A stretch of 64,000 bases of DNA, taken from NCBI GenBank assembly GCA_964450895.1, contig CAYVGW010000001.1:9259-73258 (forward strand), written 5' to 3'. This DNA comes from an uncultured Terracidiphilus sp. Its GTDB lineage: Bacteria; Acidobacteriota; Terriglobia; Terriglobales; Acidobacteriaceae. The position numbers and the translations under genes were made by a program. The first letter of the stretch is position 1, and every line of letters begins with the position of its first letter. Below are positions 24,390 through 35,520 of this stretch, one piece after another. The notes beneath the pieces were generated by a model, which ran no database searches, had not been told where the DNA came from, and was given only the letters and a program-made list of their open reading frames with translations.

Positions 24390-25154
24390 CTAGTTGGCTT
24401 GATCCGGCTTTTTCAAGCGGAACATGACTTTGGCCGGATTGCCGGCCACCACGGCGTAAGGCGGCACGTGGCTGCGCACCACCGAACCCGCCGAGATGAC
24501 GCTGCCCTCGCCGATTTTCACGCCGGGAAAGATAATGCAGTGCCTGCCGATCCACACGTTGTCACGGATAAAGACCGGCCGCACGTCCTCCGCCTGGGGC
24601 GCCTCATGCTTCCAGCGCGAACCCGGATCAGTGTCATGGCCGTTGGAGTCCATGATCTGAATGCCGCCGGAGAGTGTGCAGTTGCGGCCAATCTCGATCA
24701 GCTTTGCAATAGTGAAGCCGCAACCGCCGCCAATGCCGGTATTGTCCCCGATGCGCAGCGTGGGACGGTCGGAAAAGCGCGTCGCAAAACCGATGCCGAT
24801 CTTTCCCGCTATGCTGACATTGTCGCCGACGATGATGTCGCCCTTGCCGGTGATCCAGTGAAGATGCGCGGCGGTATGCATGTTGCGCCCGTATTGCTTG
24901 CAAAAGGCCTTGAAGTACGGCTCGCAGATGAAAACGCGCATGACAAAGTAATACATGGTGCGCGCCAGCAGAAAGACCCACAACAGCGGACGCGCGATCA
25001 CCTTGGGCGCGGGCACGGAAAATCCATGAAAGGCGTGATAGCCCCAGCGCAGCAGGCGCGCCGCAGGACTTTGCGAGGTTGCCAGGCGCCTGCGCAGGGA
25101 CAGCTTGGGCGCTTGGCTGGCCGGAGTTTCAATGGAAACTTCACTCGCGCTCAT
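24390..25154 (-). CDS. Hexapeptide-repeat (LbetaH) acyltransferase
   Basis: IIVGDNV, LRIGDNT, IEIGRNC, DSNGH, IRDNVWIG, GVKIGEGSVISAGSVV, VAGNPAK; ATGA overlap with ligase. Confidence 0.9.
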   Translation of the reverse strand: MSASEVSIETPASQAPKLSLRRRLATSQSPAARLLRWGYHAFHGFSVPAPKVIARPLLWVFLLARTMYYFVMRVFICEPYFKAFCKQYGRNMHTAAHLHWITGKGDIIVGDNVSIAGKIGIGFATRFSDRPTLRIGDNTGIGGGCGFTIAKLIEIGRNCTLSGGIQIMDSNGHDTDPGSRWKHEAPQAEDVRPVFIRDNVWIGRHCIIFPGVKIGEGSVISAGSVVRSHVPPYAVVAGNPAKVMFRLKKPDQAN

Positions 25155-26557
25155 TTGTACCTCTGTGCATCCAGCTCGCTGGCCGGTTCGATGGCTACGG
25201 CGTGCGGCATCTCGGCGCGCCGCAGAACCTGTTTCAGGATTGCGTGCAGATCGGCTTTGCCTTCTTCCGTAAGCATAGCCGCATCCACGCGCAACTCCAA
25301 ATTGTAATCCTCGCTGCCATCGCCGTGCTTGAAGACCTTGGTCGCGGCCTTGACCACATGGGGAAGACCGCTGGTCAGCCGCCGCACCGTGGCCAGGCTG
25401 ATCTTCTCGCCCTTGCGGCTGATGAAGTCGCTGAGCCGCCCTTTGAAGAAAAGGTAGCCGTCGGCGTCAATCTCGAAGGCGTCGCCGGTGGCGATCATCT
25501 GCGGCGCAACCAAATCATTGGGCCGGCCCTCGACGCGGCCAATCGTCCGCTTCATAACGGTGGCCGACTTCACAAAGAGCTGCTTCCGTCCGCTGCCATC
25601 CTCGACCGGACGCAGCGAGACCTCGGTCCCCTCGTGCGGCAATCCCACAGAGGCGTAGCGGCTGGCGGGCGCGTCATGCGCGGCCAGCGTGCAGACCCGC
25701 GGCCCAGCCTGCGTCAGCCCGTAGGTGAGATAGACTTCCTTGCCCTTGCGCAACTCCACCAGCCGCGCCGCCAGGTCCGGCTGGAGCTGATCGCCGCCCA
25801 CCGAGAGCACGCGCGGCGCGGTCAGCGCGCTGGGGTCGGACTGAAAGAAGGAACGGATATGCACCGGCGTCAGCGAGGAGACGGTGATCTCGTACTGCTT
25901 CAGCGCCTCCAGATAACCTGCCTGATGGAAGGGCGGGCCGCTGATGATCAGCCGGTTGCCGCGGGTCAGCGAACCCAGCGCCTGGCTCGACAGCGCGAAG
26001 GAAAAGTAGAGCGGAAGATTCAGCAGCACGGTGTCGTCCGCGCGCTGGCCAATCGCATCCGCGTGGCGCTTGCCATTGAGCAGAATCGCCTCGAAATCGA
26101 AGACGCAGCCCGAGGAAACCCCGGAAGTCCCCGAGGTCATCAGAACCATCTCGCCGGGGGCGGCGGCCGGCTCCGGCGGCGCCTGGAGCAGCGCAATGTG
26201 CAGATGTCCGATGTGCTTGTAAGAGACGGCGCCCAGATCGCCGGTCGTCAGGCGCAGCGCCCCGACGGCAAAAGCGCCCATCGCCGTGGCAATCTCCCGC
26301 AGCCGCGCCGACGGCATCAGCGGCGGCAGCAGCGCCGGCACGCCGCCGGCCATCAGCACGCCAAAAAAGTTGTGCAGCAGCTCGCGGCTGTTGGGCAGGC
26401 AGAGCAGAACCAGATCGCCGGGGCGCAGGCCAAGCTCCTTCCAAGCCTTCCCCAGCGCCGCGCAATCCGGCGTACCGTGCGGAAAGCCGCTGGGCAGCGC
26501 GTCCACCGTCCGCTCAACAAATGAATCCAACAGGTGCGGAGAGAGAAACTTCTTCAT
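25151..26557 (-). CDS. Adenylate-forming (ANL) acyl-ACP ligase, Cfa5/AmcH-like
   Basis: MTSGTSG P-loop, LPLYFSFAL, TYGLTQAGP, TGD, KGRLSDFISRKGEKI; coupled to KS genes. Confidence 0.85.
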   Translation of the reverse strand: MKKFLSPHLLDSFVERTVDALPSGFPHGTPDCAALGKAWKELGLRPGDLVLLCLPNSRELLHNFFGVLMAGGVPALLPPLMPSARLREIATAMGAFAVGALRLTTGDLGAVSYKHIGHLHIALLQAPPEPAAAPGEMVLMTSGTSGVSSGCVFDFEAILLNGKRHADAIGQRADDTVLLNLPLYFSFALSSQALGSLTRGNRLIISGPPFHQAGYLEALKQYEITVSSLTPVHIRSFFQSDPSALTAPRVLSVGGDQLQPDLAARLVELRKGKEVYLTYGLTQAGPRVCTLAAHDAPASRYASVGLPHEGTEVSLRPVEDGSGRKQLFVKSATVMKRTIGRVEGRPNDLVAPQMIATGDAFEIDADGYLFFKGRLSDFISRKGEKISLATVRRLTSGLPHVVKAATKVFKHGDGSEDYNLELRVDAAMLTEEGKADLHAILKQVLRRAEMPHAVAIEPASELDAQRYK

Positions 26558-27159
26558 GCGCTGGCTCCCTCCATCAAATCAACGGCCGGATCAACGGCTG
26601 CCAGCCAGGAAATCACCGATTCCGTCAGCGGCGCGCCCGGCCCAGAAAATTCCGTCGGCGCAAGCAGCACGGCGCGGCTTAGGATCGCCCCGGAGGCATC
26701 GGCGCGGCAGCCGGCCACAACCAGAAAAGGCGCAACCTTCCGCGTCAGCCAGCCCTCGCATAATCCCAGCGCCACGGGAACGCCCTCCGGCGGCTCCATG
26801 GTCAGGTTCAGCGTCGGCCCGCGCAATCCGAAGGCGATGCAGGAGACTCCCGCCAGCGTCCACGGCCCCGAGGCCGCGTAATGCAGCGGTGAGGAAAATC
26901 CTGCCTCCCCGTCCGTCTGCATCTTGGCCATCGACTTTCCCGGCCCCTGATCGCTGATCGTGAGGATGCCGATCTGATGCCGGAACTCGGCCAGGATGCC
27001 CTCCGCTCCGGCCAGCGCATGGTGGACCGCGTTGGCGGTAATCCACGCCGCCGGATCGGCAAAGCGCACCGTCGCGCGAATCTTTGCGTCAAACAGGCCG
27101 GGATCGTGGCTCGCAGCCTCACCCGTTCCCACAACCATCAATGGTTTCATCTCGCTCAT
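26554..27159 (-). CDS. Short non-catalytic KS partner (Cfa4/AmcG 'cyclisation factor'-like)
   Basis: About 200 aa; RFADPAAW, SPLHYAASGP, CIAFGLRGPTLNL (KS N-domain-like) with no Cys-His-His; ATGA overlaps on both sides. Confidence 0.72.
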   Translation of the reverse strand: MSEMKPLMVVGTGEAASHDPGLFDAKIRATVRFADPAAWITANAVHHALAGAEGILAEFRHQIGILTISDQGPGKSMAKMQTDGEAGFSSPLHYAASGPWTLAGVSCIAFGLRGPTLNLTMEPPEGVPVALGLCEGWLTRKVAPFLVVAGCRADASGAILSRAVLLAPTEFSGPGAPLTESVISWLAAVDPAVDLMEGASA

Positions 27160-28283
27160 GACGCCGCCTCGAAGACCAGGCTCGTATCGAAGCCTCCAAA
27201 GCCGAGCGTCAAACTCAACGCCGCGCGTGGAGTGCAAGAGACGGGCTGAGAAATCGCCAGCGGCAGGGTAACCTCCGGCAGCGGCTGCTCCAATCCGTAA
27301 ATCGGAGGAACCTGCCCTGTGCGCAGCGCCAGAATCACGGCAATCGCTTCAATCGCCCCGGTTGCGCCCAGCGTATGCCCAAAATTGCCCTTGGTGGCGA
27401 AGACCAAGGGCCGATCCGCTCCCGTAAACAGCGCGTTGAAGGCGTTGCCCTCGGTCGTGTCGTTCATTACCGTCCCGGAGCCATGCGCGTTGATCAGCCC
27501 GACCGCGGACAAAGGCAGATTCGCGTCTTTCAGCGACCGCTGCATCGCGTAGCCTGCGGACAATCCGGTGCTATCCGCCATGGTCATTCCTGTAGCGTCA
27601 TTGGCGGAGCCGGCTCCGGCGAGAATCGCCAGACTGGATTGCTTGGACGCATCCGCCTCAAGAACGACAAATCCCGCCCCCTCGCCCAGCAGCGTTCCAT
27701 CGTGGCGCTGATCAAAGGCCCGCAGAAGCGTCGGCGACAAGGTGCCCAGCGCCGAATGCGCCATGCGCTTATTGGGCGTCAGCACATCCGCGCCGCCGCA
27801 GACGCAGCACTTCGCCGCGCCCGAACGAATCAGCTCCGCCCCCACCAGAATGGCGTCAGCCCCTGAAGAACAAGCAGTGGAAATCACAATCGGCGGCACG
27901 GCTGCTCCCAGCTCACGCGCCACTTCCCGTGCCCAGCCGGAGAGCGGCGCGCGCGAAGCCGCCTCATCCAGATAAGCGCCCAGGCTGGTGCTCAGCACAA
28001 AACGCACCTCCGGATCGCCTGGCTCGCGTCCGGCTTGCGCCAGCGCCCTGCGGAGGGTGGCAACCGCCATCTTCACCAGCCGCTCGGTCGGCGGAAGCTC
28101 CGAGGGCGGAAGCTCCGCGCCCATCGCCGGCGCAACCAGCAGATTGCGCAGCCGACCGCTGTGCGCAACCGGCCTCATGCCGGTCTTCCCCGCGAGCAGC
28201 GCCTGCCACACCGGCTCCAGCCCGTCGCCCAGCGCCGTCAGCCACGCCATTCCCGTAACTGCGATTCTTGGATCAAATGCCAT
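27156..28283 (-). CDS. Beta-ketoacyl-ACP synthase, type II (Cfa3/AmcF-like)
   Basis: STACSSGADA (Cys), GEGAG, INAHGSGT (His), KGNFGHTLGATG (His), GFGG. Confidence 0.92.
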   Translation of the reverse strand: MAFDPRIAVTGMAWLTALGDGLEPVWQALLAGKTGMRPVAHSGRLRNLLVAPAMGAELPPSELPPTERLVKMAVATLRRALAQAGREPGDPEVRFVLSTSLGAYLDEAASRAPLSGWAREVARELGAAVPPIVISTACSSGADAILVGAELIRSGAAKCCVCGGADVLTPNKRMAHSALGTLSPTLLRAFDQRHDGTLLGEGAGFVVLEADASKQSSLAILAGAGSANDATGMTMADSTGLSAGYAMQRSLKDANLPLSAVGLINAHGSGTVMNDTTEGNAFNALFTGADRPLVFATKGNFGHTLGATGAIEAIAVILALRTGQVPPIYGLEQPLPEVTLPLAISQPVSCTPRAALSLTLGFGGFDTSLVFEAAS

Positions 28284-28403
28284 AAAAGGATGAACTCTCG
28301 CGGTGAGGAAATGCCAAAAACCCGTGCGCTATGGCGCTGCCCGCGAATCCCAGAGTTCCGGTACGCAGGCCAGCCAGCTTCGAGGCGAGTAAGAGGATAA
28401 GAA

Positions 28404-28679
28404 TTACGGCTTGCCGCTTGCCGCTTTTTGTGTCTGTAAACGGTCGATCAGCTCCGACAGCACCCGCACCGACCGGAAATTCTCCGGCGTATAGTCGTTG
28501 TCGCTGATCTCAATGTTAAATTTCTGTTCGCACAGCACGCGCAATTCCACAAAACCGACGGAGTCCAGCCCGACCACCGACCGAAGTCCATCATCCAGGC
28601 CAATAGCGTCCTCGGCGATCTCGACAAACAGGTCGTTGACGATCATCTTCCGCAAACTTGCGATCAAGTCCTCACGCAT
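28404..28679 (-). CDS. Acyl carrier protein (Cfa1/AmcB-like)
   Basis: 91 aa, acidic, GLDSVGFVEL phosphopantetheinylation motif, FNIEISD..TPENF; AGGAGG RBS. Confidence 0.9.
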   Translation of the reverse strand: MREDLIASLRKMIVNDLFVEIAEDAIGLDDGLRSVVGLDSVGFVELRVLCEQKFNIEISDNDYTPENFRSVRVLSELIDRLQTQKAASGKP

Positions 28680-30405: not shown

Positions 30406-32082
30406 TCAGCCATTCACGCGCTTCGGCCCACTTTCGAGCATGGGAATCGGAATCCCCTTTTCCCGCGCCGTCTGCTGCGCCAGTTCATAGCCCGCATCGG
30501 CGTGCCGCGCAACGCCCAGGCCGGGATCGTTGTTGAGCACGCGGGCGATCTTGCGCGCGGCTATCTCCGTGCCGTCGGCTACTGTCACCTGGCCGGCGTG
30601 CAGCGAATAGCCCATGCCCACGCCGCCGCCATGATGGAAGCTCACCCACGTCGCGCCGGAGGCCGTGTTGAGCAGCGCATTCAGGATCGGCCAGTCGGCG
30701 ATGGCGTCCGAGCCGTCCAGCATCTTTTCCGTCTCGCGGTAGGGGCTGGCCACCGAGCCGGTGTCCAGATGGTCGCGGCCAATGGCGATGGGCGCGGATA
30801 TTTCGCCTTTGCGCACCAGCTCGTTGATCGCCAGTCCCATCCGCGCTCGCTCGCCGTAGCCCAGCCAGCAGATGCGCGACGGCAGCCCCTGAAATTCAAA
30901 CCGCCCCCGCGCCAGCTTGAGCCAGCGGGTGAGAATCTCATTCTCCGGGAAGAGCTCCAGCGCCAGCTCGTCGGTGCGCTCGATGTCCTTGGGATCGCCC
31001 GAAAGCGCCACCCAGCGGAATGGCCCCTGGCCGGTGCAGAAGAGCGGGCGAATGTACTCCGGCACAAAGCCGGGAATCAGGAAGGCGTCCTGGCATCCGG
31101 CGTCGAAGGCGAAGCGGCGAATGTTGTTGCCGTAGTCGAAGGCGATGGCCCCGGCGCGCTGCAAAGCCAGCATCGCGTCCACGTGAACCACCATCGAGGC
31201 CGTCGAACGGCGCACATATTCGATTGCGTCGTGCTGGCGCAGTTCCGCCGCCTCGCTGAGCGTCAGCCCCTGCGGCACATAGCCGTTCAGCGGATCGTGG
31301 GCGCTGGTCTGGTCGGTCACCACGTCCACCGCGACACCGCGCCGCACCAGCTCCGGCAGCACGTCGGCGCAGTTGCCCACCAGCCCCACGCTCAGCGCCG
31401 TTCCGGAGCGCACCGCCGCCTCGCACAGCCGCAGCGCCTCGTCCAGGTCTTCGGTCAGCGTGTCGCAGTAGCGCGTGGCCACGCGGCGCTCAATGCGGCT
31501 GCGGTCCACGTCGATGGCCAGCACGACGCCGCCGTTCAGCGTGACGGAAAGCGGCTGCGCCCCGCCCATCCCGCCCACGCCGCCGGTAACCACCAGCTTG
31601 CCTTTGAGCGTACCGCCGAAGTGCTTCTCCGCCAGCGCAGCGAAGGTCTGAAACGTCCCCTGCAAGATTCCCTGCGTGCCGATATAGATCCAGCTTCCCG
31701 CCGTCATCTGGCCGTACATCATCAGGCCCTTGCGGTCCAGCTCGTGGAAGTGCTCCCAGTTGGCCCACTTGCCCACCAGATTCGAGTTGGCGATCAGCAC
31801 GCGCGGCGCGCCCTCGTGCGTGGGAAAGACCGCCACCGGCTTGCCGCTCTGCACCAGCAGCGTCTCCTCGCCGCCCAACTGCTCCAGCTCGCGCACAATC
31901 GCGTGGAAGCACTCCCAGTTGCGCGCCGCCTTGCCGATACCGCCATAGACCACCAGGTCTTCGGGCCGCTCGGCAACCTCCGGGTCAAGATTGTTCATCA
32001 GGCAGCGCAACGCCGCCTCCTGCTGCCAGCCTTTGCAGCGCAACTGGCCGCCGCGCGGCGAACGAATCACGGGAGCTGTCAT
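30406..32082 (-). CDS. hutU: Urocanate hydratase
   Basis: [66 protein letters not shown]. Confidence 0.98.
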
Positions 32083-32103
32083 GGTCCTCATCCCTCGGAA
32101 ACA

Positions 32104-32180
32104 GTGAAACAGTTATGAGGTGAAAAAGTGAAGAAGTGAAGTATGAAAAGAGCGTTCTTTCACTCATTCACTTCTTCACT
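32104..32180. repeat. Paired GTGAA/TTCAC octamer-like repeats forming a hairpin
   Basis: GTGAAAAA GTGAAGAA GTGAAGTA ... TTTCACTCA TTCACTTC TTCACTT. Confidence 0.65.
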
Positions 32181-32211
32181 TGCAGTCTGTTTTGCAATTT
32201 AATTATCACAA

Positions 32212-32634
32212 TTAATTCAGCAGGCGCTTGCGCAGTGCGGTCCTTGTTGTTTCATTGATCTCGGTAACCGGCACGCTGATCCTTCCAGCCCCGCTGTCAA
32301 GCACAGCATCGCTGCGCTCCGGCCACGCATAAAACAGCTTGTTCTGCTTCACATCCACCGCCAGGAGAAATCCCGGAACGTTTGAGTTTGCCAAACGCCG
32401 ATAGGACCTCTTATCGAGAGGGAACGAAGAAGAAATGGCGCGTTCTGTGCCTTTTACTTCCACGGCGAAGGTATTCACTCCCCCCTCTGGATTCCCGAAG
32501 CCAACAAGGAAGTCGAATCCGAGATCAAGCGTCGGACGGGCGAGGAACTTGGGTTCAAGCTCCTGGAGGAAGAGCTCAGCCAATACCTCACTCCTCCTCC
32601 CAATAAAATCAGCGTGTGATGATGTCATTTTCAT
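32212..32634 (-). CDS. Small PD-(D/E)XK nuclease-fold protein (DUF4365-like)
   Basis: GRRSE helix, DLGFDFLV, FAVEVKGT, SNVPGFLLAVD; ATGA overlap with partner. Confidence 0.75.
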   Translation of the reverse strand: MKMTSSHADFIGRRSEVLAELFLQELEPKFLARPTLDLGFDFLVGFGNPEGGVNTFAVEVKGTERAISSSFPLDKRSYRRLANSNVPGFLLAVDVKQNKLFYAWPERSDAVLDSGAGRISVPVTEINETTRTALRKRLLN

Positions 32635-33116
32635 GCGAACACCGAAGTCTTGGGTTTATGGCTGGTGGTCTTCCAGAACATTCGTACCTCATCATGCAGA
32701 ACATGAAGATTCCCAGCCGTTAGTTCGTTGGAGATTGGGATACAAGTGATCCCCTTGACGGGCATGCCGAGACAAACTGACCGGACGAAGACGCGTCGCG
32801 AAGGTTCATGAATTCCGAAAACATACGTCGGACCGGGAATCTGAAGAAGGCGTTCGACATCCTGCTTTTTCATCGAGATTCTCAGGCTCCGTGAATTCTT
32901 CGGGAATGCCGAGCCGGTTGTTTTTGCTTGCACAAAGAAATAGGGCGTTCTTCCGCGCACATTCCGCAGTTCAACGTAGAAGTCAATCGATGGCCACTTG
33001 TCGCCCAGGAATCCAGGCCGAAACAGCGGCTCAGGAAAGGCCTGATAGTTCGTAAGAATATCCTGAACAATCAGTTCCCCGCGAAATCCCGTCATATCTC
33101 TGAGATCGATTGTCAT
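32631..33116 (-). CDS. Small PD-(D/E)XK nuclease-fold protein (DUF4365-like)
   Basis: GFRGE helix, PSIDFYVEL, FFVQAKTT, PGPTYVFGI. Confidence 0.78.
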   Translation of the reverse strand: MTIDLRDMTGFRGELIVQDILTNYQAFPEPLFRPGFLGDKWPSIDFYVELRNVRGRTPYFFVQAKTTGSAFPKNSRSLRISMKKQDVERLLQIPGPTYVFGIHEPSRRVFVRSVCLGMPVKGITCIPISNELTAGNLHVLHDEVRMFWKTTSHKPKTSVFA

Positions 33117-33363
33117 CTGAACTGAGGTCGAATTTCAAATCCAGTATACCCTTTGACACAATTTCACGGTCCCCAAAATCTTTCCAGTAAAGATACTATT
33201 CCGAAAAAACTCTCTGCAAAAGCCAAAGTTGCAGGCGAGCGCGCCCTATGATGGTGGAATCAACGCCAAATTCTAGAAGAACTTTCAGATTCCACGGTCC
33301 AGGACAAAATCCGCCATGGAAATCCTGTTGCCGGATCGAAGCGCCTCTCACTATCCTGTTCTC

Positions 33364-34854
33364 ATGCCCAAGACTCTCGTTGAATGCGTGCCCAATTTCT
33401 CTGAAGGCCGCGACCCGGCCAAGGTCGATGCCATTGTCGAAGCCATGAAGATTCCCGGCGTTTACCTGCTCGACCGCGAGATGGACGCCGATCACAACCG
33501 CTGCGTCATCACGCTCATCGGCGAGCGGGAGGCTATCGCCGAGGCGGCGATTCGCGGCGTGGGCAAGGCCGCCGAGCTGATCGACCTCACGCAGCACACC
33601 GGCGCGCACCCGCGCATGGGCGCAGCCGACGTCATTCCCTTCATCCCCATCGACGGCGTGACGCTAGAGGATTGCGTGGCCATGGCCAAGCATGTGGGCG
33701 CGGAGATCGCCCGCCGCTACCAGATTCCGATCTATCTTTACGAGGCCGCCGCCACGACGCCCGAGCGGCAGAATCTGGAAAACATTCGCCGCGGGCAGTT
33801 CGAGGGCATTCGCGACGAGATTGCCGTGAAGCCCGAACGCAAGCCCGACTTCGGCGAGCCGCGCGTCCATCCCACCGCCGGAGCCACCGTCGTCGGCGCG
33901 CGCAAGCCGCTGATCGCTTACAACATTTTTCTAAATACCACCGACGTCTCCGTCGCCAAGAAGATCGCCAAGGCGGTGCGCTTCTCTTCAGGCGGCCTGC
34001 GCTTCGTCAAGGGCGCGGGCTTTCTGGTGCGCGGCATGGCCCAGGTCTCGATGAACCTGACCGACTTTGAGCAGACGCCGATCCATCGCGTCTTTGAGTT
34101 CGTCAAGCGCGAGGCCGAGCGTTACGGCTGCGTTCCGGTCTCCAGCGAGATCGTCGGGCTGATTCCCAAGCTCGCGCTGGAACAGGCCGCGGAGTGGTTC
34201 CTGCAAGTGGAGAACTTCGACTCCTCGCTGATTCTGGAGAACCGTCTGGATGCAGTCATGAGCGGCAAGACGGCCGTGGGCGGACTGCGCGCGGGCATCG
34301 AGCCCTTCATCGAGCAACTGGCCGCGCCGACAGCGACTCCCGGCGGCGGCAGCGCGGCGGCGGCGGCGGGCGCGATGGCCGCCGGACTCGCCGTCATGGT
34401 GGCGTCGATGTCGCGCGGCAAAAAGGCCTATCTGCAATACGAAAGCCAGCTCAGCGAGGCCGTCGCCAAGCTCACGCCGCTACGCGAGGAGTTGAAGGCC
34501 GCCATCGACGCCGACGCCGAGTCGTACAACTTAGTCATGAAGGCCTACAAAGCCGCCAAAGAATCCGCCGACGGCGGCAAGGCGATCAACGCCGCGCTGC
34601 GCCAGGCAACCAGCGTGCCGCTGGGCGTGGCGGAAAAGGCTGTTGAGATTGCGCGCCTCGCCGCCGGCCTGCGAACCATCAGCAATCCCAATATGGCCTC
34701 TGATCTGACCACCGCGATTGCGCTGGCCGGCGCGGCGCTGGAAGGAGCGCTGGCTAACGTGGCCATCAATCTTGATTCCATTCAGCCAGAGTCGCCAGAG
34801 GATGAGGCCTTTGTGAGCCAAACAAAAAAGCGTGTGGCGGAGTTGAAAGGATAG
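33364..34854 (+). CDS. ftcD: Glutamate formimidoyltransferase / formimino-THF cyclodeaminase fusion
   Basis: LVECVPNFSEGRD, DADHNR, HPRMGAADVIPF, QVSMNLTD; cyclodeaminase part PTATPGGGSAAA...NVAINL. Confidence 0.95.
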   Translation: MPKTLVECVPNFSEGRDPAKVDAIVEAMKIPGVYLLDREMDADHNRCVITLIGEREAIAEAAIRGVGKAAELIDLTQHTGAHPRMGAADVIPFIPIDGVTLEDCVAMAKHVGAEIARRYQIPIYLYEAAATTPERQNLENIRRGQFEGIRDEIAVKPERKPDFGEPRVHPTAGATVVGARKPLIAYNIFLNTTDVSVAKKIAKAVRFSSGGLRFVKGAGFLVRGMAQVSMNLTDFEQTPIHRVFEFVKREAERYGCVPVSSEIVGLIPKLALEQAAEWFLQVENFDSSLILENRLDAVMSGKTAVGGLRAGIEPFIEQLAAPTATPGGGSAAAAAGAMAAGLAVMVASMSRGKKAYLQYESQLSEAVAKLTPLREELKAAIDADAESYNLVMKAYKAAKESADGGKAINAALRQATSVPLGVAEKAVEIARLAAGLRTISNPNMASDLTTAIALAGAALEGALANVAINLDSIQPESPEDEAFVSQTKKRVAELKG

Positions 34855-34943: not shown

Positions 34944-35243
34944 CTACGCCGCCTTGCGAAAGGGCACAATCTTCGGCTGTTTCTTTTCCTCTGCCTTCCG
35001 CACGTCATATCTGTTCTGCATCTCTAACCAAAAGGTCTTGCTTCCGCCAAAGGCGGCAGCCAGGCGCAAGGACATTTCCGCGGTGATGGCCGACCGGCAA
35101 TTGAGAATCTTCGACATCGTGACACGCGAGACATGGAGCCGAGCCGATACTTCCGTGACGGTAAGTTCTCCAATGACTTCCCGCAATACCTCGCCCGGAT
35201 GGGGAATACGATACGGCGCAATGCGCTTTCTTTCATCTGCCAT
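34944..35243 (-). CDS. higA: HigA-family antitoxin (HTH)
   Basis: PHPGEVLRE, ITAEMSLRL, FWLEMQNRYD. Confidence 0.9.
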   Translation of the reverse strand: MADERKRIAPYRIPHPGEVLREVIGELTVTEVSARLHVSRVTMSKILNCRSAITAEMSLRLAAAFGGSKTFWLEMQNRYDVRKAEEKKQPKIVPFRKAA

Positions 35244-35520
35244 GGTAATCCTCATAATTCAACAGGATAAACGCGTCGCCGTTGAAAGAAAAGGTCAGCC
35301 GCCAGTTTCCGCTCACCCACATCGAGAAGGTCTCTTCGCGCTCGCCTTTCAGCTTGTGCAGCTTCCAGCCTGCCGGGCGCGGAAGAGACGCCACATCTTT
35401 GGCCACGTCCAGCGCGCTCAACTGGGCAAACAGTTTGTTGGCGTGCGCAGGCTGAATGCCGCGCATATCTCCTGTTTGAAAGAACCGTCTCAAACCTGCG
35501 TGCTTGAAAGATTCAATCAC
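35233..35520 (-). CDS. higB: HigB-family (RelE-like) toxin
   Basis: IESFKHAGLRRFF, WKLHKLKG, SMWVSGNWRLTF, YEDYH; toxin-first order. Confidence 0.9.
   Translation of the reverse strand: MIESFKHAGLRRFFQTGDMRGIQPAHANKLFAQLSALDVAKDVASLPRPAGWKLHKLKGEREETFSMWVSGNWRLTFSFNGDAFILLNYEDYHGR

Follow-up and report, generated by a model that had tools for sequence, protein, structure and literature searches.

In the 64,000-nucleotide stretch of an uncultured Terracidiphilus sp. genome analysed in this study (the window), two small overlapping genes, here called A and B, lie between hutU and ftcD. The features discussed below are:

33116-32631, minus strand: gene A, 161 aa, a stand-alone DUF4365/DREN-fold protein, predicted cutting subunit or toxin
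32634-32212, minus strand: gene B, 140 aa, a DUF4365/DREN-fold paralogue, predicted restraining or structural partner
32631..32634, minus strand: ATGA stop-start overlap, which couples translation of B to A
32107..32192, no strand: imperfect palindrome 3' of B, one of a dispersed REP-like family and not cassette-specific
30406..32091, minus strand: hutU (urocanase), the left flank, outside the module
33316..34854, plus strand: ftcD (formiminotransferase-cyclodeaminase), the right flank, outside the module

The first-pass annotation of this DNA had described two open reading frames of 161 and 140 aa that overlap by ATGA and are wedged between divergent hutU and ftcD, and that lack an adjoining methylase, NTPase or sensor domain. 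The coordinates and strands above bear this out, and no such adjoining gene is present in the window. The DNA had also been called lower in GC than the hut genes, which is correct: the A-B pair has 51.9% GC against 67.1% in hutU, 63.9% in ftcD and 59.5% in the genome, and third-position GC is 0.56 in A and 0.61 in B compared with 0.87 in hutU and 0.81 in ftcD. The hutU-ftcD spacer measures 1277 nt here versus 180-771 nt in the seven same-genus loci for which both flanking genes were fetched, and a search of 30 relatives for the cassette gave no match except one 36-nt hit at another place. The pair also adjoins ftcD in three other loci, one of which is in a Terracidiphilus genome. In the relative G006 (G006:C3 37894-39759) the same spacer holds other cargo of ~1.9 kb, and in G001 and G007 (L015, L016) it holds a related small ORF-like insert. 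Just 3' of ftcD in the window, a HigB-like toxin gene followed by an HTH antitoxin gene (34944-35520, minus strand) is another small insertion into the hut genes. Further away, a cluster read from the ORF list only (24390-28679, minus strand) encodes an acyl carrier protein, a ketosynthase-like protein, an AMP-ligase and an acetyltransferase. Another DUF4365 domain of the same genome (L001, G000:C19:33186-33557, minus strand) opens a 634-aa frame that ends in a long helical tail.

The palindrome at 32107-32192, built of GTGAA/TTCAC units, belongs to a family with 14 places in its own genome, between ordinary genes, and palindrome-like matches are also present in the relatives G002, G009 and G011. 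A downstream hairpin as the end of the cassette was ruled out on the basis of these 14 places next to ordinary genes. Upstream of the pair in the window, one sigma-70-like site was found versus 0.9 expected. Three contigs from metatranscriptome run X3 match with zero differences over 32438-33104, one of them spanning the A-B junction; they are a hint of A-B expression only, with strand and level not readable, exact cover of the flanks not listed and the run itself found with the same stretch. The small-share runs X4 and X5 are left out of account here.

Fold and active sites of A and B

The nuclease-like signatures noted earlier are as stated, and both proteins pass the gathering score of Pfam DUF4365 (PF14280; 25.6 bits for A and 29.9 for B against 24.3). 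A is basic (pI 9.8) and has the residues G10-x-R-G-E14, D45 and Q63-x-K65, with the family motifs GxRGE and FLGDKWP; B has G12-x-R-x-E16, D37-x-G-x-D41 and E59-x-K61, the full set being present in the window copy. The earlier description of the two as otherwise very divergent needs amending, as the paralogy of A and B is detectable both directly (29% over 112 aa) and in a profile-profile comparison (E 3e-5, 102 columns). The proposed fold search gave a consistent answer for the AlphaFold models of A and B (pLDDT 84.8 and 87.1): the top matches of both are DREN chains of SPARDA (9qcc, 9jt2, 9vx6; E 3e-6 for A and 1e-6 for B), and Hjc/Hje and I-Ssp6803I rank next. B aligns with Hjc/Hje over 110 residues (Z 10.8, rmsd 2.9) and with I-Ssp6803I over 112 (Z 9.8, rmsd 3.0). 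NhoI appears low in the fold lists, and Pfam finds no modified-base reader and no HTH or RHH domain in either protein.

According to published accounts, the Nba DREN requires D41/Q60/K62 (10.1101/2023.06.08.544223), the active residues of the Tmu DREN are Q62/K64 (PMC10810196) and EAT16, a DUF4365 toxin, requires DxGxD..QxK (PMC11297309). DREN alone is described as an inactive monomer that becomes active once a tetramer has formed via alpha1-alpha1 and beta1-beta2 contacts (PMC12205087); in the XauSPARDA tetramer, the two 'active' DREN domains that bind and cut DNA are supported by two 'structural' ones, an arrangement shared with I-Ssp6803I (10.1101/2025.04.08.647717).

Residue conservation was compared in 117 unique full pairs, including this window, which were obtained from 146 loci with an A match after 23 cut or broken loci had been dropped. 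The E-D-(E/Q)-K set, with the alpha1 glutamate included, is whole in 112 of the 117 A proteins (E14-D45-Q63-K65). A is predicted from this conservation to be a metal-dependent DNase with E14, D45, Q63 and K65. B is no plain pseudo-enzyme, since its full catalytic set is present in 72 of the 117 pairs, window included; R14 of B is kept in 117/117 and D41 in 114/117. Median net charge is +8 for A versus +2 for B in the close clade, and +2 versus -2 in the far clade. Median dN/dS over 26 disjoint pairs is 0.17 for A and 0.24 for B, with B higher in 21 of them, and A proteins are at least 60% identical across phyla.

A and B resemble the DREN of NbaSPARDA, XauSPARDA and TmuRE-Ago in their Pfam family, their top fold match and the D..QxK site. 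They differ from SPARDA in being bare domains (161 and 140 aa), with no APAZ fusion and no Argonaute alongside, and in being two paralogues, whereas SPARDA uses one domain that homo-tetramerises on a filament. With I-Ssp6803I and Hjc/Hje the pair shares a small PD-(D/E)XK fold, and the I-Ssp6803I tetramer has cutting and supporting subunits, but those enzymes are one-gene homo-oligomers and A-B consists of two genes with no fixed insertion site. DUF4365 without an Argonaute also serves as defence effector or toxin in Divona, a single-gene anti-phage system in which DUF4365 is fused to other domains (10.1101/2024.07.02.601686), and in the eCIS toxin EAT16 (PMC11297309); both are single fused genes, unlike the two bare domains seen here. 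In the main text of the openly searchable literature we found no description of a stand-alone DUF4365 pair; DUF4365 is described there in SPARDA, the fused Divona gene and EAT16.

Pairing, range and neighbourhood of the module

Co-occurrence of the homologues had been proposed as a check, and it is strong. A B-type gene lies directly 3' of A in 80/80 genome loci found with A (the best 80 of 98), one of which is cut by a contig end, and this pairing is far beyond chance. The ATGA overlap is present in 68 of 72 close-clade pairs; in the far clade, most pairs are separated by 3-19 nt. Distances among A proteins correlate with those among B proteins (Spearman 0.84 over 117 pairs and 0.58 within the close clade; 0/500 permutations), with the limitation that kin are not independent. 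The DREN fold is common to A and B, and the two are passed on together under purifying selection; the minimal cassette proposed in the first-pass annotation stands as a conserved, co-inherited and horizontally moved two-gene module without a methylase. The A-B pair is a real and apparently undescribed two-gene family, although the proteins themselves belong to the known DUF4365/DREN group.

The family is spread over nine phyla, which we take from the record titles to be Acidobacteriota, Planctomycetota, Cyanobacteriota, Gemmatimonadota, Pseudomonadota, Desulfobacterota, Chloroflexota, Verrucomicrobiota and Moduliflexota. It is rare within them: three strong matches were found in 401 genomes of its own phylum, 351 genomes of a second phylum gave only the centre genome, and 10 of 201 genomes of a cyanobacterial order carry A, nine with an adjacent B and one at a contig end. 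Copy number is usually one per genome, and module GC is below that of the flanks in 107/109 loci. Among 150 listed representatives, one 311-aa protein (P0267) is an A-B fusion with a degenerate B site; it comes from the 13 proteins of at least 190 aa that were examined and may be a frameshift artefact. No longer fused form was found in the search range of 399-2000 aa, which lies above the 300-aa range. A few loci have other arrangements. L092 (8001-10878) is a tandem in which a broken B separates two A-B pairs. In L069 (5085-9090), an intact A-B follows a first copy whose A has an internal deletion and whose B is intact, with Uma2 and a small TA-like pair in between. L196 (3918-7088, minus strand) has a different arrangement of four co-oriented genes, which encode a DUF4365 protein, two unknown proteins of 372 and 196 aa and a DUF4365 protein resembling B.

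The neighbour scan covered 127 immediate neighbours, with long ones cut to 420 aa, in the 69 of 73 non-redundant loci that have a called neighbour. The named neighbours are mostly housekeeping genes (pdxJ, glmS, ftsI, pyk, metG, gatB, clpP, topA, carB, acs, ftcD). A defence, toxin-antitoxin or mobile-type neighbour (HicA, HicB, PIN-type, XisI, Uma2, HEPN, STAND, BrxL, DUF3732 or relaxase) is present in 16 of the 69 loci by a hand grouping with no background control. The enrichment in defence islands that had been suggested as a check is therefore modest and uncontrolled, with most pairs standing next to housekeeping genes. In a few loci the pair lies right behind a known defence locus: a DUF3732 ATPase gene in L054 (5983-8917), BrxL in L182 and, in L195 (304-6269), a helicase and SMC-type ATPase cluster that is presumably of the Dnd type. 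A methylase adjoins in two of the 69 loci, one N6/N4 and one C5; a methylase motif scan, which flagged 2 of 1544 called genes, missed two methylases found by Pfam and was insensitive, and it is not relied on here. Piwi or Argonaute genes are absent from the 127 immediate neighbours and from the window's own 90%-complete genome. No neighbour recurs in the scanned loci beyond shared ancestry (the acs site, Nostocales), and repair genes are not among recurring neighbours. Across lineages the flanking genes are unrelated, with no shared insertion site and no conserved ends, and the cyanobacterial copies have stayed long at one site under purifying selection. The plasmid and phage collections searched gave no match, and the viral contigs gave one weak 33% partial match for A and zero for B.

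Upstream of 57 close-clade loci we found no conserved operator, promoter or RBS; a -10-like hexamer occurs in 13 of these 57 regions versus a shuffle mean of 7.6 and maximum of 16. PADLOC-DB 2.0 has no match for A or B of the window, and among 31 diverse members at most one A matches any of its models and eight B match only the Argonaute-associated REase model. NCBIfam gave 0/6 matches. The pair, called a candidate novel defence module in the first pass, thus matches no PADLOC or NCBIfam model, and it is neither SPARDA nor a restriction-modification or PADLOC system.

Unpaired copies and lopsided loss

The metagenome loci found with B (the best 80 of 88) include 13 cut by contig ends, which leaves 67 evaluable. 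Of these, 53 have an intact A, nine (seven events) have lost it by deletion or lack it, and five have it frameshifted, stopped or inverted. In the 79 evaluable loci found with A, B is deleted in none and frameshifted in two. Partner loss is therefore 0/79 versus 9/67 (Fisher p 0.003 by events and 0.046 for the close clade alone), with the caveat that these are two different collections. Seven loci flagged automatically as broken (L061, L062, L064, L065, L069, L089, L165) had alignments running past the natural stop and are intact by hand reading, and L109 was reclassed by hand from contig edge to deleted. Since the two sets are different collections, 221 cyanobacterial genomes were searched with both profiles. 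They contain 18 intact pairs, one pair cut by a contig end and one with both genes broken. B stands alone in seven and beside a frameshifted A in one (eight in total), canonical A alone was found in none, and the 13 genomes with A only all belong to a non-canonical lineage. In the B tree the lone copies are scattered over several places, and the nearest neighbour of each is a paired B. B as the toxin was rejected, as lone B with intact motifs is common.

The expectation that homologues are always paired is false, but no canonical A was found with its B deleted. Intact canonical A does occur with a frameshifted B in L177/L178 (two samples that share one 1-nt deletion) and in L028 and L037; those of L028 and L037 are possible sequence errors, L037 having indels in both genes. 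The lone-A lineage (L199-L212) comprises 14 loci in 13 genomes, mostly at the acs site, and is a single clade (support 1.0) within the paired A sequences. Compared with paired A, it has R12 in 0/14 versus 47/50, G38 in 0/14 versus 50/50 and E14 in 3/14 versus 48/50; W41 and the Gx[R]GE and LG motifs are also lost, and the proteins are acidic (net charge -1 to -9). D45, Q63 and K65 are kept under purifying selection (dN/dS 0.06-0.19), which is why a change of function is possible: the lineage, which reflects a single event, may have changed function rather than been disarmed. With its eroded alpha1 and LGDKW motifs, the clade could represent a domesticated nuclease fold.

In L214 (3560-4741) and L217 (3504-4718, minus strand), lone B is coupled to an upstream protein of 394-405 aa with a C-terminal helix-hairpin-helix, the start of which we take to resemble AbiTii-type proteins (no database match), and B may have taken a new partner there. 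In L215 (892-4732), lone B with a 14-codon remnant of A lies between a GmrSD nuclease gene and a gene with a 5-hmdU kinase helical domain.

Proposed restraint of A by B and competing explanations

It was suggested in the first-pass annotation that the pair is either a heterodimeric nuclease or a nuclease with a regulator or immunity partner. The second option fits the data better, since the catalytic residues are tight in A and loose in B and the loss is lopsided; a symmetric heterodimer fits less well. We propose, with a probability of about 45%, that A is likely a DNA-cutting toxin which B likely binds and restrains, as a toxin-antitoxin-like module for suicide (abortive infection) or addiction. 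The proposed mechanism begins with two proteins of one DREN fold that are inherited together under purifying selection. A would act as a metal-dependent DNase, judging from conservation and published DREN mutagenesis. DREN would cut only once oligomerised through helix alpha1, and we infer that B could take the partner position and in this way block an active A homo-oligomer; the clues in B are the alpha1 arginine in every copy and the drifting catalytic residues. More speculatively, a phage that shuts off host expression, or loss of the locus itself, would deprive A of B, and free A could then degrade DNA.

The 80/80 pairing, the correlated A and B distances, the purifying selection on both genes, the asymmetry in active site and charge, the lopsided loss and the eroded motifs of the only lone-A lineage argue for restraint. 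Its structural premise is that an isolated DREN is inactive until a tetramer forms via alpha1 (PMC12205087; 10.1101/2025.04.08.647717). Against restraint stand the intact A genes beside frameshifted B (L177/L178, L028, L037), the minority of defence-type neighbours and the lack of a conserved upstream operator, unlike classical autoregulated type II toxin-antitoxin pairs. The full catalytic set in 72/117 B proteins also counts against it, as does the lone-A lineage, a single event with D45, Q63 and K65 kept. The lopsided loss may have another cause, namely that upstream genes are more often hit by deletions. As for autoregulation, the fold of B could itself serve as a DNA binder. A more elaborate version, which we consider doubtful, is that the nuclease toxin was duplicated and one copy, now decaying, serves as the antitoxin by filling subunit positions of the active DREN tetramer, with the A:B ratio as the switch and the cyanobacterial lone A as a domesticated, disarmed toxin.

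HigBA and HicAB are type II toxin-antitoxin modules with the toxin gene first. A-B is like these and XisH-XisI in having two small overlapping genes, a patchy distribution, common lone second genes and a place within TA stacks, but differs from type II modules in that B is a nuclease paralogue, not an HTH or RHH protein, and no operator is conserved. DUF4365 does not appear in the main text of the paper on the NetFlax TA network (PMC10440598).

DREN nucleases are known as effectors that are switched on by Argonaute filaments via tetramer formation. A bare module of two DREN paralogues in 900 bp would show nuclease control without a sensor, either by a paralogous inhibitor, which is an unusual antitoxin design, or by active and structural tetramer roles split over two genes. 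If true, sensor-free control of a SPARDA effector would be spread over nine phyla. The B-only, perhaps disarmed A-only and single fused forms are natural variants usable as controls. As the pair is rarely in defence islands, it may be a candidate defence module missed by guilt-by-association screens.

A tentative alternative, which we regard as possible but unlikely, is an A2B2 heterotetramer that is always assembled and active, in which duplication split the cutting and supporting roles. It would provide restriction-type defence without a methylase, sparing the host by recognition of a foreign feature such as modified bases, a long rare site or branched replication DNA. The division of subunits agrees with the active and supporting subunits of the XauSPARDA and I-Ssp6803I tetramers (10.1101/2025.04.08.647717), and with fold matches of both models to DREN and then Hjc/Hje and I-Ssp6803I. 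A catalytic, basic A and a relaxed, less basic B are also as expected, and an intact A with frameshifted B (L177/L178) would be harmless if each subunit were inert alone. Such inert subunits should, however, be lost with roughly the same frequency, and the counts are 0/79 versus 9/67, and 0 versus 8 in one genome set. The 311-aa fusion P0267, with its possible frameshift origin, fits the heterotetramer and the restraint of A by B alike, and these two models are not fully exclusive, since the subunit ratio could decide the outcome.

Restriction enzymes provide partial parallels. The heterodimeric type IIT enzymes Bpu10I and BbvCI reportedly have adjacent paralogous PD-(D/E)XK genes, cognate methylases and two subunits that both cut. 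A and B are adjacent paralogous PD-(D/E)XK genes as well, but a methylase adjoins only 2/69 loci, from two classes, and the B site drifts. Like type IV restriction enzymes, A-B has no cognate methylase; the absence of a modified-base reader domain from A and B by Pfam speaks against the heterotetramer, although small modification-dependent enzymes without a reader domain exist.

A selfish cassette without a defensive role, that is, a homing-like or merely proliferating nuclease pair that persists without benefit like cyanobacterial Uma2/COG4636, is improbable. Its patchiness (3/401 genomes of its own phylum and 1/351 of another), GC below the flanks in 107/109 loci, solo insertions next to unrelated housekeeping genes and Uma2 and XisI among the neighbours would suit such an element, and COG4636 has been proposed to be selfish (PMC551604). 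The usual single copy per genome shows no proliferation, however, and there is no single target site, no conserved ends and no presence in the plasmids, phages and viral contigs of the collections searched; long residence at one cyanobacterial site under purifying selection is also difficult to reconcile with it.

Very improbable is a cellular structure-specific nuclease or DNA-binding factor, such as a heterodimeric repair enzyme resembling a Holliday-junction resolvase, that is no conflict system. Hjc/Hje are the best non-DREN folds, A is at least 60% identical across phyla, the lone-A clade is under selection and exact metatranscriptome contigs cover the pair, but a repair enzyme would hardly occur in < 1% of its own phylum, with foreign GC, frequent decay and no recurring repair-gene neighbours.

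That the ORFs are two fragments of one longer gene, or two lone DUF4365 genes adjacent by chance, has almost no credibility even with one fused protein (P0267) and lone DUF4365 genes being common, given that both ORFs are complete domains, have separate active-site sets and are under purifying selection, and that the ATGA junction and the pairing hold in 68/72 close-clade pairs and 80/80 loci, respectively; for this window, conservation of the junction and the completeness of both folds refute the fragment explanation raised in the first pass.
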